Assembly (NCBI GenBank): GCA_012026655.1
Contig: JAAILG010001963.1
Coordinates: 1 to 59,461, forward strand
Direction of reading: 5' to 3'
Origin: Hydrolagus affinis
Lineage: Eukaryota
Length of the DNA stretch: 59,461 nucleotides
Below the pieces are notes generated by a model, which was given only the letters and a program-made list of their open reading frames with translations, did no database searches and was not told the origin of the DNA. Of the stretch, positions 1,020 to 15,244 are shown piece by piece. A program made the position numbers and the translations under genes. Position 1 is the first letter of the stretch. Each line of letters opens with the position of its first letter.

Positions 1020-1098
1020 GACACCAGGAGAAGAATGGAAGAAAGAAGCCCAAGAGGCAGCAGAAACATCCCTTCACACAGTAGAAGAACAATCACTG
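1020..1098 (+). CDS. SPTB: Beta-spectrin linker exon shared by long and short isoforms
   Basis: Acceptor atctttcag|g completes AAG from the previous exon, reads TPGEEWKKEAQEAAETSLHTVEEQSL, donor |gtcagt (phase 0). Confidence 0.85.
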
Positions 1099-1152
1099 GT
1101 CAGTTACCAATCCAAATTCTGTCATAGTTCCCAGCGTTTCAAAGCATTGTAG
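1099..1152 (+). CDS. SPTB: Alternative short (PH-less) C-terminal extension by donor read-through
   Basis: In-frame continuation VSYQSKFCHSSQRFKAL*. Starts with VS like the human SPTB erythroid tail (VSLWSRL...) and the SPTBN1 short tail (VSYRSQ...). Confidence 0.65.
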   Translation, partial: VSYQSKFCHSSQRFKAL

Positions 1153-1424
1153 AGTACCAACCATTTTCTTCTGTGCACCACTTATTCCCTTTTGTTTCAT
1201 TCTTTTCATCCATCTCTCATGGGCTCGTTGTTGTATAATTTATGGATGTACAAATCAGGTCTAAACCAAACCAGAGTGAGTGTGTAATGCTTGAATGATT
1301 ACAGTGGAATATTTTCATACGTAGCTGGTATACCTATGTTGAACACTGTCTTGGTGGGATACTCTTTTAGTATGGTGTTGAGTTCCTGTGCCCATCAGAC
1401 AGCTGCCTGACTCAAACATTGTTA

Positions 1425-1570
1425 CAGTAGAACCCTGTAATAAGTGTGCTACTGTACTTTATAACATGAGGCTGCTGAAAAGGCGGTGTGACAAGTGATC
1501 TTGCCCATTAAAACTCTGGGTTGGAATTTTAAGGACTTGCTCCGACTTCATTATAACAAGTTTCTACTCT
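1425..1570. mobile_element. Degenerate pogo/Tigger-type MITE
   Basis: Left end TA-cagtagaaccctgtaataa; right end ttataacaagtttctactct is an imperfect inverted repeat of it. Confidence 0.4.
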
Positions 1571-2503
1571 CTTTATGAAGCTTCCACATTGCAGACAGAG
1601 TTGTTAATTGATTATTCACCTGATTGATGAATATTGATGTATGAACTCTGTGAGACTTTGGTGTAACAGCACTTCAGTTCTCTCCGTTCCCCCCAGTTAA
1701 GGAAAATTGACTTGACATTACAAGGTCGCTTAGTATATCCATGTACTGATAGCATTGAAAGTGAACAAATGATGGGATCTCTTATTGTATACATCCACGC
1801 CACCAACACTATAGAAACACTAACACCAATGATGCACCATCTTTGGGAAGAGTTACTCAAAGAAACCAAGAGCAATAGAATAAAACCAGAAAATGTGCCC
1901 GGAGCTGGATTGGTTTCAATCTGATTGGTATATCCTTTCAGACTTTTTAAAAAAAATTGTAGAAATTAACATAAGATATGAGTTAATTATAAAAGCATAA
2001 AGGTCATCTTCCAGTAGCAAAGCCACTGAACTGCCTGATGATTCTTAGTGCCCGTGTTACACATATGGTACATTGCATTTTAAAACTCACCGAAGTTTGT
2101 TAGGATTATAGAATGCTTCACACAAACAGCTAGCAAATCACACTTCAGGTAATCCCACTGGGATATAAAGACTGGTAGATACAATATAAAACGGTTGCTT
2201 GTTAAGCAGTTATGTTTACTGGGACCTTTGATGTAATAGTTGGTGAACAGATTTTGGTGGAGAATCCACTATTGAGATAATACCCTTCAAATTCCCATTC
2301 TCAGTCTGCTTTGATATTCCCTATCTAACTGTATGTAGTCCTGATTTGACTTTTGCTTTGACTTAACACATGTTAACATCAGTTTGTTCTTCTGTGTGGG
2401 GAGAGTAACACAAGCAAACTACTTCCTATGCGTGGATTCTTATAAAAGGCTGATTTCAATGTCGAAATTTGTGTCCGGTTTCATCTGACACATGCACATG
2501 TAA

Positions 2504-2823
2504 CTCCTGTAGCTCAGTGGTTAGAGCACTCGCCTTACAAATGTGAGACCTGTGTTCAGATCAGGGCGGATCAGAGCGAAACCTTGGGCAAGTTTCCTTA
2601 CTCCACACGCCTGATAATAATCTGTCCAAAAAAATCCCCACAATAATAAAAATTGATCATTTCAATCCAAGACTGTTTGTGGGACGCTGCTGTGCGCAAT
2701 TGGCTGCCACATTACTCTCACAAATATACAGTCAATTCACTTTACAGTATATTCTGTGAAGCACTTTGAGACGTCGATAAGATGTGAAAAGTGCTATATC
2801 AAACGCAAGGATTATTATTATTA
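2504..2823 (+). mobile_element. Full-length tRNA-derived SINE (Deu-like core, L2-type tail)
   Basis: A-box tagctcagtggttagagc, decayed B-box, core gggacgctgctgtgcgcaattggctgcc, tail gcactttgagacgtc...gaaaagtgctatatcaaa.gcaagga(tta)n. Many copies in the window. Confidence 0.9.
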
Positions 2824-4455
2824 CTTTTGTTTGAATGACTGGTTTGGATAGATTATTTAGAGACAGTTTGTTTGCTATCAGACAAATCGGCATGTTGCAT
2901 GCAACTGGTTATTTCTGTTCTCGTAGATTGTGCTTCCACTAGAGGGGCAGAAGAAAGTAGAGTATTTGATTGTTAGGTCAACACATAGTGTGATACATTG
3001 TTGTTCCCTGATATTTACCCTTCTGTTCTCATTGCTTCTCCCTTATAACAAGTCGGGAGCTATATTATTCTATACTGAAAATTCCTCACAGTTATTGAAC
3101 AGTTATTTTATTGAGATTTTTAAATATCTTTGCACATAAAGATCTTCTTGTTAATCTTTCCTTATTAAGGATTATCATTAACAAGTGTTATCTTGGGAAA
3201 ATGTATCACTTGCTCCAGTATTATTTTATGAATGTCATTTAGTAGCTTTGGAGTTGAACTTATATTGATAGCTAAAAATAGTCATGTTGTTTTAATGGGA
3301 TTTCACATTGTAGAGATTAAGTGAAAAATTCACTATTTTTAGATAGCATGTTAGACCCAATTGTGTGAATTTTTTTTTAAAAAAGTTAATTAAACACATT
3401 ACTTGTTAATTAACCTGTGTTAATTAACAATGAACAATTGGGCAACGTCTCAGAGCGCTTCACTGAGATTAATTTGAATCCTTTACTTGTTAATTAACCT
3501 GTGTTAATAGCATGTAGCATTCTTTTAACCTGTGTTAATTAACCTGTCTAAAGCTCTCCGAGATGTTACCCAATGCGCAGGACGCTAAATATAAATGCAG
3601 ATTGTGGTAGTTTAAGTGATGGGCCTTTATGAGAATCTTGCAAAGAGTAGGGAGCAAAAGAGTACACAGTCATATTGTAGACATTCTATCACAACGGGTG
3701 AGCCCAGTAATGAGTTCTAATGTTATTTACTGGTGTGGCACTGCACGAACCCTGCACAAAGTATTGCCAAAGTAGCGGAACGTTAATGACTCGTGTTCCA
3801 GAAATATAACCTGGGGTTTGAGGAATGCATCGACCTGGATTCCTAACCTAATTGAATGGAATATTGTACCATTAACTGAAAAGGGCAACGGAGGGGAATG
3901 CTGCAACACTAATTAATGTCAGGTTCAGTTGCACAGCTTTGCTTTAACACAAGGTGTCAGTGTGTTCCCTTTCCACGCATTGCAGACTGTGACGTGGGTC
4001 AGAACTGAGGGTGTGAACTGGTCCAGAAATAAGTGTTGCTGTTTGTGTTCTACAGGCTATAGGTTGATGTAGCCTGCGTACTTTTATATGATACACGTGT
4101 GCACAGTTCTGCAATATTCCTGTTGTGTCCTTTTTCTGTGCCTTTGGTATTTTGTTTTCCCACAAGGTCTTTCTCCTCTATATTTTTGTGTGTATCTGCA
4201 ATCTAGGCGCCGCGTTTCTTTTCATTTACTTTTTCTGATCTTTTCTTTTTCCAAATGTTTGAAATAAAGACCAGTCTTTTTATCCTCAAATTCTTTTTTT
4301 TGTGTGTGTATGTATTAAAAGCACCTTGTCCCCCCCCCACCGGCTGAGCTGAGTTGTTGGAAACTGAGTTTCGCTCTGGTGTGGCTCGCACTTGTGTTTG
4401 ATGTTGTGTAACTGTGCAGTATTTCAAAATGTTGCATTGCTTTATGGAAAATATA

Positions 4456-4611
4456 CAGTAAATCTCACATAGATCGCATCAGTTGGGACCATATATTTAA
4501 TGTGACTTCAGCAAAGTATGAATGATGACAAACGTGTATGGAATATAAACTCTGGAGCAGATTTACGAGATTATACAAACTATACAGATCAGACTTATTC
4601 GAGTTTCACTG
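4456..4611. mobile_element. Degenerate pogo/Tigger-type MITE
   Basis: TA-cagtaaatctc ... gagtttcactg-TA: CAGT termini flanked by TA. Confidence 0.45.
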
Positions 4612-5095
4612 TAAAAATGTGAAATACAAAAACTAAAAATTGCACCTTTTTCATAGAAGTGTCAACGTAGAGTGGGAAGGAGGGTTTCAAATCTATGCCA
4701 GTAATGTTCTGGGTATATTTTCTTTACAACATTTTGTACTATTAATATCTGAATAGAGCTCCCTCTGAGATCTCATATTTTGAGGCCAAAGAGCCCGAGC
4801 TAATCCAGTCATTGACCTATTTAATGTAATTTGGTAGCATTGTTTTGACTGTTACCTGTAAATCTTTAAATCTATTGCCAAGCGATTAGTCTTAGTGGGG
4901 ATGGTTTATGTATGTTATTCGGTAGCCGTGAATTGCACTCTGTACCTTAGGGATGCCCATGATATCTTTACTGCAGGAGAAAATGGTTGAAAGTTTTTTT
5001 TCCATTTCAATTCCTCATTCAGCCAAATGTTTAGTTGAGCTAATTGCACATTGTGGTGGAAGCGATTGAGAGTGTAGGTGTTAAAGTGAATCTGT

Positions 5096-5230
5096 TAATA
5101 ATAATCCTTGCATTTGATATAGCGCTTTTCACGTCTTCTAGACATCTCAAAGCGCTTCATAGAATATACAGTGAAGTGAATTGACTGAAAATATGTGGAC
5201 ATCACTTGACTGATGCAGATGTGGCAGCTT
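5096..5230 (-). mobile_element. 5'-truncated copy of the tRNA/Deu SINE
   Basis: Reverse complement of the SINE tail: (aat)n ccttgcatttgatatagcgcttttcacgtcttctagacatctcaaagcgcttca. Confidence 0.85.
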
Positions 5231-7128: not shown

Positions 7129-7485
7129 AATAAATATTGTGATGACATTCCACATTTCCCTTTGGACACTTTTACTGGCTTCGTTCACTCGTTATTGCAA
7201 CAGCAAGAATATGAAAGGAAATGATTTTGTGTAGGTTAAATATAATGGAAGGATATACAACAACAAGCAGGTTAATTGTGTGGCCTTTATGTATTTTTGC
7301 TGAACAATGATGTTTTTGAACTTTCTGACATTCGAGCTGTCAGGAAATTGAGCTTGTGCTGCCAGGAGATTCATTTGTTGGAATCAACAGTGACCCTTGA
7401 ATAAAGCACGTTATTTCTCTTGATTGCTTTGAGAAGGGAATTGTTGGGCAATTATGTACAATGCCATAATAGCTCCAACTGTTGA

Positions 7486-7650
7486 TGTTAATAATAATGA
7501 TAATAATAATACTTGCATTTGATAGCGCCTTATCTTGCCATTGAGACCACTCAAAGAATTTACAGAATATATTGTAAAGTGGATTGACTGCGTATTTGGG
7601 GGGGCGAAACTTGGCAGTTAATTGAGCACAGCAGTGTCTCACAAACCGTC
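7486..7650 (-). mobile_element. Diverged Deu SINE 3' half
   Basis: (aat)n cttgcatttgatagcgcc...ggcagttaattgagcacagcagtgtctcacaaac is the reverse complement of core plus tail. Confidence 0.75.
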
Positions 7651-7897
7651 GTGGGTTTATTAAATCACCCTGGTGTATGATACCGCCTTTTTCCTATTTT
7701 AAAGTATGATCTTTCTACGTTATGAATTTGTATTTTATTTCCATAATGTACAATATTATTTAAACATCAAATATATCATATTTCTTTCAATTTCTTACCT
7801 TTTTCTTCCTTCAAACCTCTTTACTTTTTTTCCTGTCTCAATTTATCAGTTATTCCAATTCCAAGTTCTAGGTCTGTAGCTATAGGAGAATATATTG

Positions 7898-8260
7898 ATA
7901 ATAATAATCCTTACATTTGGGATAGCACCGTTCACGTCAGGAGGATGTCCCAAAGTGCTTCATAGGATATAAGCGGAGTTAGTATGGTCTGTGGACAAAG
8001 AAGGTCTGCGGATCATTTGAGAGGGACTAAGCAGGAGGGAGTGGGAGAAAGTAGGTTGCTGGTGGTGGTGGGTGAGGCATGTGAGTATGAATGAAGAGAA
8101 AAAGTGGTGACTGAAGAACACTCACGAAGATAGCTTTGAGAGTTAGCCACATGGCAGGACACAGACAGGTCAGATTGGACAAATGAATCACATTCCTTAA
8201 CTAGGAACATTTCAAAGCAGAAGCAAAGGCATGGGCTTGTAAAAGGAATTATGGCAGCAG
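7898..8260 (-). mobile_element. L2 LINE / SINE 3' end fragment
   Basis: Tail ccttacatttgggatagcaccgttcacgtcaggaggatgtcccaaagtgcttca followed by purine-rich, degenerate L2-like sequence. Confidence 0.5.
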
Positions 8261-9961: not shown

Positions 9962-10236
9962 GTAACGACATCAGAAACTCTTTCCGTCCTAGTAAATGGC
10001 ACTGACAGTCCAGAAGAAAAGACATTGGAGACTGAAGATAAATCGGAAATTGAAGAAAAACCTCGTGAAAAGGCCATGAGGCCCCCACCCTTGATATTGC
10101 CAGAACAGGGACCTGAGACATCTAGATTTGCATCTACACTGCCAGTGCTAACACCTAGAGACCACACTGCCCAATTGGAGGGATACCTGGGACGCAAGCA
10201 TGAACTAGATGGACCAAATAAGAAGGCATCCAACAG
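9962..10236 (+). CDS. SPTB: Beta-spectrin exon: linker plus start of PH domain
   Basis: Acceptor ttttccatcag|, phase 0, VTTSETLSVLVNG...AQLEGYLGRKHELDGPNKKASN(R), donor ag|gtgaat. EGYLGRKH.L.GPNKKASNR is SPTB-like. Confidence 0.92.
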
Positions 10237-10511: not shown

Positions 10512-10685
10512 ATCCTGGACTACCTTATATTGTGCCCTGAAGAAAGGAGAACTTAGCTTCTATAAGGACCCAAAGAACTGTAGCGCAGGTGTAACATACC
10601 ACGGAGCGGAACCTTTGAATCTGAAAGGTGCCACATGTGAAGTTGCTGCTGACTATAAGAAGAAGAAACATGTGTTTAAACTCCG
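10512..10685 (+). CDS. SPTB: Beta-spectrin PH-domain exon
   Basis: Acceptor cccag|a, SWTTLYCALKKGELSFYKDPKN...YHGAEPLNLKGATCEVAADYKKKKHVFKL(R), donor cg|gtgagt. Confidence 0.95.
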
Positions 10686-11820: not shown

Positions 11821-11863
11821 ATTGAGCAGTGGAAGTGAATACCTGTTCCACGGCAAGGATGAG
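11821..11863 (+). CDS. SPTB: Beta-spectrin 43-nt PH-domain exon
   Basis: Acceptor tgtattgcag|a, LSSGSEYLFHGKDE, donor |gtgagt. Fills the PH gap and is phase-compatible on both sides. Absent from the ORF track. Confidence 0.93.
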
Positions 11864-12117
11864 GTGAGTAACTTGATTATTCCTATGTCTTTTTTTTAAA
11901 AAAAAACTCATGTATAAAATGCGAGTGAATGAGTTGCACACTTCAGATTTGTTGCTCGTAGAAAGCTATGGAATGCTTTTTTTCCTTGTGAATAATTTGC
12001 ATTTGTTGTTAGAATAGTATCAATCGAATGAAAGATATTGAAGTCCTTCACTACAGATCTACTGGGAATATAATCAGGGCACATTTTGTATTTTGAATGT
12101 CTCTTTTGTTCTTCTAG

Positions 12118-12309
12118 GAGGAGATGAATAACTGGATCCAGAATCTGACCGCAGCCATCGCGGAGAATGACGAACCACAGCTCCAAAGCGCAGGGCAAGG
12201 GGAGGTCAGGGCACATACCCTACCACTCCCACCCACCATTGCTCCTGAAACAAGTCCTGGCAAAAAGGACAAGGAGAAAAGATTCAGCCTTTTTGCAAAA
12301 AAGAAATGA
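12118..12309 (+). CDS. SPTB: Beta-spectrin terminal coding exon (long isoform)
   Basis: Acceptor ttctag|, EEMNNWIQNLTAAIAE...RAHTLPLPP...GKKDKEKRFSLFAKKK*. This is the characteristic beta-spectrin C-terminus. Confidence 0.95.
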   Translation, partial: EEMNNWIQNLTAAIAENDEPQLQSAGQGEVRAHTLPLPPTIAPETSPGKKDKEKRFSLFAKKK

Positions 12310-13620
12310 AAAGAGAAAATGTGGGGAGAAAAATGTCTCAGTGCCTAATTTAAAATTGGTGGCATTTCTTAAACTGCACCAAACAGGGGAAAATCAGTTA
12401 TTGTAAATGTAAATATACATTTCACCGTTATGGTGTGATGGGAAAGTAACTTTTTTAATTTACTTAATATGTGCCCATTTCAACCCATCCCAAAAATATG
12501 AATGACTATTTTTGAAGTGATTTTCAGTTTTAGATGTATCCTTTCCAATGTAGGTTCTTACGGTCCTTGTTACTGGCTGAGAAACATAGAATTAGCTCAA
12601 ATCGAACTTTGAAATTGGAGCTTTAAAAATCACAGCAGGTAGTCAAACACATTCTCTGTTTATTATTCAGCCATCGCATGTTACAGTACGATTATTTTGT
12701 ACAAGGCTGGTTGCACAAACAGTGGGACTCTAGTAAGGCTACAAAACCGTAATTAAATTAAATTGTTGCTACCAAAGAATGTTAAAAGTTATAGTTTTTA
12801 AAAAAAAAGTTTAAAAGTTCTAAGCAGAAGCCTAAATTTTCAAACCATAGTACAACAGGTTAGATAACAGTGTCAAATTGATAAATTACACGACAGATGC
12901 ATCTTGGAAGTGGTTAAGAGTGCCACGTTTGTACTGTAAACCCCTAAAGCTGAATGCATATACTCTGTACATGTTTGGCATGTGTTTTCTTGCACCTACA
13001 GTGTTTCCATAGATTGTTTTATGAGATTATCAAATTGAGAATTTTTTTATCGCACTTTGTATAAGTTTTCTCTTGAGACAAACTGCCTACACAAATTTAT
13101 TTGAGTTATTTTAATTCAGTCTTATTGGGCTGTTGCTTATACACAAAGGGCTCTTTTATATAATACACAACATTGCATTAAACAACACATTTGTTTCCAA
13201 GATATTAAACAATATTTTCAACCTGGTGCTCTTGGAATATAAGTGTTGCGGATGTTCTCAGTATTTTAATTGAATCAGAAGTCATAACTAGCAACCTGTA
13301 GAATCTGACATTTCTTTGTGTTCATTTTAAATTCACATACATACCCTCAAAAAACTTTTTTTCTATTTTTGTTTCAATCATAATGCTCATTTCTGTTATC
13401 TTTTCAGCCTGTTTGAATATTTTCATTTGACAGCTTGTGGTCTAAGTGAATGGCAGGGAAATGTGGCAAGCTATTGTGCTTTTAAAGTTTAATGTTTTAA
13501 TTTGGGGGGAGGGCGCTGGGGGGTGTTAATAAAACATTAAATTACCCAAATCTATGCATTGCCCCCTTTCCCCTCCTTATCAAATTATAATTCCTAATGA
13601 GGATTTCTTTAGATAATAAA
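12310..13620 (+). other. Putative 3' UTR of the long isoform with candidate polyadenylation signals
   Basis: AU-rich and repeat-poor. ATTAAA at 13177 and 13204, AATAAA at 13528 and 13615. The true end is unknown. Confidence 0.5.
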
Positions 13621-15244
13621 GTTTTACAACAAATTCTAGATTTATACTTTTTAAAGTATTTTTTCATACCTCATCATTTTCAGACTTACTCCAGAACTAG
13701 CACATTTAGGACTACCTTCAGTCTGTATGGATGGGAGGAAGCTCAGGCAGGTTTAAGTCTGACTCAATGTATTATTGGAGCTGTCATTAGATTGAAACCA
13801 TGGGCAGGTTCAGCCAGATGAGTTTCAGCCAGGATTAAGGGAAAAGGGTAGTTATGGAGGGAAGCCTTGTGATAATGGAGTTTGTTAATAATTAGGTATA
13901 ACTGGATCTTCAGTGAATATTTGAGATGCAACAATTACAACTTATTTGATACAATCTTTACGTACCTATATAGCTATGCCTGGATATCCGAGAGAGTTGA
14001 ATTTGATTTCCTATTACATTATAAACCTTCTTGGATATTCCTGAAATTAATTTGCACGTTGATAACTAGTAAATGATCAGTTATCATAAGCCGAAGATGG
14101 GTGAGATGAATGGAATAACATAAGTAACAAATGATCTGTAAACTATTTTAAAGATCTATGTCATTAGTGGCCTAACCATTTTAGATGACCTAAAAAATGA
14201 TCATAGAAATAACAAAGCAGCATAGATTCATATCATAAATTGAGAAATATTCAATAAGAAAATTTATTTTGCTGGTCACCACTGGTCATTGTGGTGCCTA
14301 GTTGTATTTATAGTTACAGTCCAAACTAGCAAGAGTCTTCAGTTCTCTGTCCCAAGATTGCATCTTAACTCCGATCTCCACATAAGAGTACCTTTGCATA
14401 ATCAGATCTCGTTTAGACTGACAGTCATACTTACCGTCACCAACGAAAGAATTGGGACTTTTTTCACATGGATTTGAATTCTGGTCCCAGTAAGGAAGAT
14501 GAAGTATACATAACCCTTTGTGTCATTCAGGCACCTTCAATGTTTATATTTCCAATACCACTTATTCTCATTAAAAGGTCATTTTGCTCACTCTTGTTAT
14601 CCTTCCCCCACTCAGAATCGGATTGAGTTTCTAAACACTTGAAGGTCTATATAGTGCTGAGTTACATTTGTCCTTGACTGATATAAACAAACAAGCGAGC
14701 ATCTCAGCTCTTTGTCAAGGACTCTTGCAAGAAGCAGAAGAAACACTTTTTGTAGTCTGCTTGTATGTTACCAAAGGCCAAGAGATGAAAGAGAACTTGT
14801 CCTACAAATGAAAGGAAGCTGAATTCCGACTCGACTTAATTGCTTTGATTCTCTAAAAGCCACAAATGAGTCACGGACGGTTGTCCAAACCAGTCTTCCA
14901 TAAAATCAAACCTTCAAATATGTGGATGCCAAATGTGGGGGTGGGGGAGGGAAAGCAAGAAAATACTGTTTTGTAAATGTGTAGGTTTTCTCCTGACACA
15001 TTTTCAAGCAAATTATTGCAAGTGCCATAAATTGCTGACTTGCCTTCTAATTGCTCTCTTGAGTTTGGCTGATTCTTTTGGAAATAGACACAACTCTGTA
15101 GTCCAGAGTGTATTTGTGGCTTCTATCTACAAGAGAGATTAAAATCTACCAAGCAATTTTTTTCTTATTTAGGGTCTGAAGACGATTTTTTTTCATAATC
15201 ATTGTACATACAATAAGGTGCACTTTAAATCCTTGGCTGATCAG

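Follow-up and report, generated by a model that had tools for sequence, protein, structure and literature searches.

Beta-I spectrin without its PH domain commonly serves to illustrate RNA processing specific to red cells. The PH-less form is not known from the zebrafish and has for that reason often been tied to the enucleated cells of mammals. The start of a contig from the holocephalan Hydrolagus affinis raises the question of whether the form is far older. Our window is the entire contig (G000:C1963; 59,461 nucleotides). An initial annotation of it had proposed that a splice donor at 1099 can also be read through in frame, that the resulting transcript would lack the PH exons, and that this switch predates the split of cartilaginous and bony vertebrates. 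The kind of switch is already known from mammalian SPTB and SPTBN1, and no new mechanism is involved. What we add is RNA evidence from a holocephalan SPTB, a corrected end site for the short isoform, a turtle tail that matches, and figures that favour a single origin before the SPTB/SPTBN1 split.

On sequence comparison, the gene at the start of the window is identified as the 3′ end of holocephalan SPTB (beta-I spectrin), with all of its exons on the forward strand. Exon A (45–154) carries the end of repeat 17 and the start of the linker, has a phase-2 donor at 155, and is joined to exon B by RNA reads from a close relative (154 to 1020; fifty reads in library X2 and ten in X4). RNA loose ends before position 45 match a repeat-17 exon on contig C208859, which reaches 101 bits in a comparison with the beta spectrin of human erythrocytes (3lbx). 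Twenty-four more upstream exon matches lie on contig C991, and their order and identity suggest that they belong to the same gene. The actin-binding domain, spectrin repeats, and repeat 17 were all found upstream in this way, with the repeat-17 exon tied to the window by RNA. Contig C991 had no match above 40 per cent identity to gar residues 1424–1527 or 1987–2014, so these exons are divergent or missing there. The repeat-17 exon occurs on two near-identical 608-base contigs (C208859 and C208849), likely two alleles.

The common part of exon B (1020–1098) follows TTTCAG and ends in HTVEEQSL, a motif also found in ray-finned sptb and Callorhinchus SPTB (EEQ[ST]L in gar and teleost sptb). The switch donor, CTG/GTCAGT (1099–1104, with the G at 1099), is in phase 0 and matches the consensus at seven of nine positions, compared with eight of nine for each of the gene's four other donors in the window. 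The PH exons of the long isoform begin 8.9 kb beyond it. Exon C (9962–10236) encodes the linker's second half and the start of the PH domain, exon D (10512–10685) its core, which matches the beta-spectrin PH structure 1btn (E 1.9e-18), and exon E (11821–11863) a further part. Exon F (12118–13640), the last of the long isoform, carries the stop codon at 12307–12309 and a 3′ UTR reaching AATAAA at 13528 or 13615. Together, exons C to F make up 227 codons without a stop. At position 1073 in exon B, the window has T (Leu), and a DNA contig (X1) and the RNA of X2 and X4 have C (Pro, as in Callorhinchus); the T is either a private variant or an assembly error.

The description of the PH domain as SPTB-like held up. 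The PH region is 96 per cent identical to Callorhinchus SPTB, 68 per cent to sheep SPTB, 57 per cent to teleost SPTBN1-like, and 51 per cent to skate SPTBN4. A PH tree of twenty-three rows, none of them SPTBN2, groups the window and Callorhinchus with named SPTB sequences at a support of 88/85, which is below the threshold for a starred node. The chondrichthyan subgroup within it is supported at 96/93. The same genome has a separate, clear SPTBN1-like gene on contig C13645, which falls apart from the window among the SPTBN1-like rows, and an SPTBN4-like gene on C96038. This gives at least three conventional beta-spectrin PH genes (SPTB, SPTBN1-like, and SPTBN4-like) in a fragmented assembly, where such counts are lower bounds; the genome search matches included no SPTBN2-like copy.

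Read through from 1099, the frame continues for 17 amino acids, VSYQSKFCHSSQRFKAL, to a TAG at 1150–1152, so that the coding tail spans 1099–1152 and ends ahead of the PH exons. Each of these elements lies where the initial annotation had placed it. We used three stranded polyA RNA runs of the relative (X2, X3, and X4), which is mostly 95–99 per cent alike, with about 27–30 per cent of each run read. Sense depth in X2 is unbroken across 1098/1099 and covers the tail (mean 61.8 in bin 1067–1148, with seventy reads at 1073 and forty-seven at 1143). Fifteen reads in X2 and four in X4 are spliced from 1099 to exon C, whose first bases are the loose-end consensus of RNA reads at 1100; the joints between exons C and F are masked by repeat-derived rows. 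One donor in the linker after repeat 17 is therefore both spliced and read through in X2, as had been proposed.

The read-through signal has a clear beginning and end. The upstream intron (154–1020) has a depth of 0 in non-repeat bins of X2. From exon B to 2450 the sense depth is 37–93, and over a larger stretch the non-repeat bins up to 4347 stand at 46, 59, 22, 83, and 48. Depth then falls from 48 in bin 3917–4347 to 0.57 in bin 4348–4778 and stays at 0.3–5.7 in non-repeat bins across the rest of the 8.9-kb intron. The relative's RNA thus contains a last exon made by read-through, about 3.2 kb long. Between 5210 and 9950, non-repeat sense depth in X2 climbs as exon C is approached, starting at about 0.5 and reaching 5.7, as expected if the long intron is removed late. 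Repeats at 2505–2830, about 5096–5170, and 7365–8226 draw thousands of reads from both strands, and the copy at 2505–2830 lies inside the short 3′ UTR. We take these transcribed repeats to be SINE-like.

The balance between the two forms differed greatly among the runs. Depth over the long 3′ UTR (bins 12106–13398) was about 20–28 in X2, 14–19 in X4, and about 5 in X3, and depth over the short UTR was 0.2–1.4 in X4 and 0–0.5 in X3. With repeat bins excluded, the ratio of short to long UTR depth was about 2.1 in X2 vs about 0.05 in X4 and X3, a spread of about forty-fold. At the junction itself, X4 has three read-through and four spliced reads, which is less skewed than its UTR depths. The isoform ratio varies between libraries, and this does not imply erythroid specificity. 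All three runs are labelled single-cell, share one sample label, and give no tissue, so the variation between libraries cannot be read as variation between tissues.

Where the short exon ends is not where it had first been placed. The initial annotation had pointed to ATTAAA at 1507 and AATAAA at 1879 as poly(A) signals. Both are present, but with a joint frequency of about 1.2 per kb their occurrence is not above chance. X2 depth continues across each of them with no pile of ends (54.5 then 45.1 across 1507; 60, 39.4, then 62.5 across 1879), so neither is the main end. Because depth persists and then drops after about 4350, we set the end near 4263 (about 4270–4350). The AATAAA at 4263–4268 has U-rich sequence upstream and U/GU-rich sequence downstream, and given the depth drop and this context it is likely the short isoform's poly(A) signal, with ATTAAA at 4314 as the alternative. 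The libraries are polyA, the end of depth is sharp, and the signal is canonical; tailed reads were not visible in tables filled by repeat reads. The short 3′ UTR would then span about 3.1 kb (1153–4340), with its end placed to within a 430-base bin.

On DNA alone, the 17-amino-acid frame is of chance length: an open run of at least seventeen codons begins at 37 per cent of positions in this intron. The observation rises above chance because of the RNA and because of the similarity of the tail across species. Two full-length turtle ORFs end in SSL/VSYQF and are at least 99 per cent identical to turtle SPTB, and their contigs of 6.7–6.8 kb point to spliced RNA. The SPTBN1-like gene of the same genome (L005:5597–5514 of C13645, minus strand) has a 28-amino-acid read-through tail at the equivalent donor. 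This tail starts VSYRSQ, and nineteen of its twenty-eight residues are identical in the short SPTBN1 tail of a mammal-like record. When the donor of mammalian SPTB is read through, the three tails compared begin VSFMSR, VSFLSH, and VSSRSH. Beyond the VS imposed by the donor, the start is therefore VSYQ in turtle SPTB, VSYRS in SPTBN1, and VSF.S in two of the three mammalian SPTB tails. The 17-residue frame is not conserved beyond this start as a whole: tail length is 17 residues in the window, 5 in turtle, 20–22 in mammals, and 28 in SPTBN1.

We compared these starts with two nulls, 462 other GTNAGY sites and eighty-seven read-throughs of the repeat-17 donor of the family. At bases +7 to +21, the window and its own SPTBN1 are alike at ten of fifteen positions, which none of the 462 sites equalled, so the resemblance to SPTBN1 noticed earlier is indeed above chance. 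Residues 3–4 (YQ) recur at 0/462 GTNAGY sites and in one of the eighty-seven repeat-17 read-throughs. Over residues 3–10, the score with the rodent tail was equalled by 0.4 per cent of the GTNAGY null and 1.1 per cent of the repeat-17 null, and the opossum score by 1.7 and 1.1 per cent. The Tasmanian devil tail, which lacks the aromatic third residue, had a score equalled by 2.8 and 2.3 per cent of the nulls and by 8–36 per cent on shorter windows (p 0.02–0.36 depending on the window). The tails of two teleost models have scores typical of the null. All of these figures serve as guides and not as formal tests, because the score windows were picked after the tails were seen. Against DNA contig X1, the tail has one synonymous change (1143) in fifty-four bases, with about 40 changes in 2450 and at most two X1 changes unlisted; such near relatives are too close to say anything about constraint on the tail.

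Among the closest known systems, mammalian beta-I-Sigma1 (the short erythroid SPTB isoform) shares with the window the gene, the site within the linker that follows repeat 17, the phase-0 donor that is read through to a nearby stop, and the loss of PH. A VS-aromatic-x-S-basic start is common to the tails of rodent P0417, opossum P0538, and the window. The mammalian tails are 20–22 amino acids, whereas the window has 17 and a UTR of about 3.1 kb. In mouse Sptb, both forms are described as arising by splicing from within exon 32, and the short form as predominant in red cells and poly-phosphorylated (PMC11333264). The window tail has four serines among its seventeen residues (four Ser/Thr in all) and no acidic residue, compared with six to eight Ser/Thr and two acidic residues in the two 22-residue mammalian tails. 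With fewer Ser/Thr and no acidic residue, it perhaps does not share the poly-phosphorylated character. Short SPTBN1 (beta-II-Sigma2) also has a composite terminal exon at the equivalent donor and a VSY.S start, but it belongs to the other paralogue and has a strongly conserved 28-residue tail, which includes an RRT motif missing from the window tail. Its terminal exon contains a 5′ splice site and responds to CELF1 and ELAVL1 (10.1101/373704).

We then looked for the short form in other vertebrates. The listed chondrichthyan cluster members number sixty-eight, and sixty of these reach repeat 17, fifty-one with a PH domain and nine without. The proposed alignment of the tail across chondrichthyan SPTB found nothing to align, as a read-through tail is missing from all sixty listed models that extend to repeat 17, those of the Callorhinchus cluster among them. 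Among the members listed, all nine PH-less tails lack the initial V, so these elasmobranch tails are spliced to other last exons. RefSeq-predicted PH-less SPTB of sharks and rays (for example XP_062907902.1, XP_041069944.1, XP_059811064.1) comes from the orthologous gene and is truncated at the same boundary, with one model using a donor seven codons upstream of it. These tails are 0–29 amino acids long and mostly unrelated to each other or to the window tail. We found no counterparts of them behind an AG in the window intron (best scores 2–16). RefSeq names most elasmobranch SPTB orthologues 'non-erythrocytic 1-like', though the three in our tree group with SPTB; such orthologues can be missed in surveys based on names.

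For large clusters, the comparison covered fifteen of up to fifty-two members. Outside the cartilaginous fishes, no PH-less linker form was present among the listed sixteen amphibian, thirteen lungfish, bichir, and sturgeon, and seventy-nine gar and teleost members, with one listed teleost model ending at the repeat-17 donor. Among 120 ray-finned representatives, 119 have a PH domain, and the tail of the sole read-through model is unrelated. The sptb genes of zebrafish and other ray-finned fishes are orthologous and share the exon-B end motif, but the listed models retain PH. The zebrafish riesling paper (Liao and colleagues, 2000) is reported to have found that red cells of this fish do not splice PH out. 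A PH-less form with other last exons also occurs in one turtle model and one marsupial model. Read-through forms were seen in 0/15 listed ruminant members and 2/14 listed marsupial members. Since no listed ruminant member shows a short form that mammals do make, blanks in other lineages are weak evidence. In the literature listings and abstracts covered, no paper described a short isoform of SPTB from cartilaginous fishes or from turtles, which does not establish its absence from print.

Taken together, exon B is probably a composite terminal exon that is either spliced at 1099 or read through, with a switch likely inherited from the common ancestor of SPTB and SPTBN1. Long and short variants of beta-II spectrin and the vertebrate gene duplications have been described (PMC4016758). 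The age proposed for the switch, before the cartilaginous and bony split, is likewise likely, and the VSYQ of the turtle tail strengthens it. We consider it unlikely, though a real contender, that the short isoform arose independently in chimaera, amniotes, and SPTBN1, with the donor as a hotspot and the shared residues due partly to chance or to nucleotide constraint next to the splice site. Any truncation at this donor removes PH, and elasmobranchs, one turtle, and one marsupial model reach PH-less forms through unrelated last exons. Tail lengths of 5–28 residues, and the lack of amphibian or lungfish read-through and of any related ray-finned tail among the members listed, fit repeated origins as well. 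However, donor and phase are identical, and residues or bases beyond +6 match in two paralogues and three lineages. Annotation also overlooks read-through even in mammals, as the ruminant and marsupial counts show.

Less probable still is that the reads in the intron come from RNA left unspliced or cleaved too early, which would mainly cut the output of the long form and yield little stable short protein. The single-cell label, the low X2 depth that persists through the remaining intron, and the long, repeat-containing 3′ UTR all agree with such a reading. Yet the upstream intron has no signal, the signal in the exon is 10–100 times that of the rest of the intron, its abrupt end coincides with a canonical signal accompanied by a U/GU element, and the short form exceeds the long form in X2. 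A stop lacking a downstream exon junction is not expected to provoke junction-dependent decay. The resemblance to SPTBN1 is very unlikely to reflect paralogue misassignment or later gene conversion in place of descent: the 'non-erythrocytic 1-like' names, the SPTB support of 88/85, and a tree without SPTBN2 leave some room for it, but the genome has distinct SPTBN1 and SPTBN4-like genes (C13645 and C96038), the end of the linker agrees with that of sptb in gar and teleosts, and turtle SPTB shares the tail start.

In the mechanism that we propose, a slightly weak donor before an 8.9-kb intron would compete with cleavage and polyadenylation near the AATAAA at 4263, both roles being deduced from sequence and depth. 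When 3′-end formation wins, translation would end at 1152. The predicted short protein retains the actin-binding domain, the repeats, the ankyrin site, and the tetramer site and loses the phosphoinositide-binding PH domain. The PH domain is described as binding phosphoinositides, and red-cell beta-spectrin as having no PH and binding through ankyrin (PMC4107783). By analogy with mammalian red cells, the PH-less form would attach to the membrane via ankyrin, and the cell type preferring it would likely be erythroid.

A broader history can be offered tentatively, at somewhat less than even confidence: an ancestral read-through older than the SPTB/SPTBN1 duplication would still provide most red-cell beta-I spectrin of holocephalans and turtles, would have been lost in ray-finned fishes, and would have been replaced by spliced last exons in sharks and rays. 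If true, PH-less erythroid spectrin would be the ancestral state of jawed vertebrates, in nucleated red cells, and not a mammalian adaptation, and the zebrafish would be the derived case. The holocephalan read-through and the turtle and SPTBN1 tail starts would shift the origin to early jawed vertebrates and reverse the polarity. The listed Callorhinchus models lack the short isoform that we see in the RNA of the relative.

SPTB tails are short and divergent, which suggests that for SPTB, unlike SPTBN1, the loss of PH matters more than the tail sequence. Two minor similarities concern the tail itself. The nine bases at 1105–1113 (+7 to +15) recur exactly at +22 to +30 of the SPTBN1-like tail of the same genome (L005), a recurrence noticed after the fact, and the SPTB tail may derive from an ancestral tail of two units. 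Of the shark proteins compared here (P0502, P0499), the white shark model has a spliced PH-less tail that starts SSQR, the same as residues 10–13 of the window tail (1126–1137). This likeness was matched by eighteen of 2000 random peptides, in one of six tails tested (164 of 2000 for the basking shark tail), and may be either what is left of the old tail after a new acceptor arose in front of it, or coincidence.
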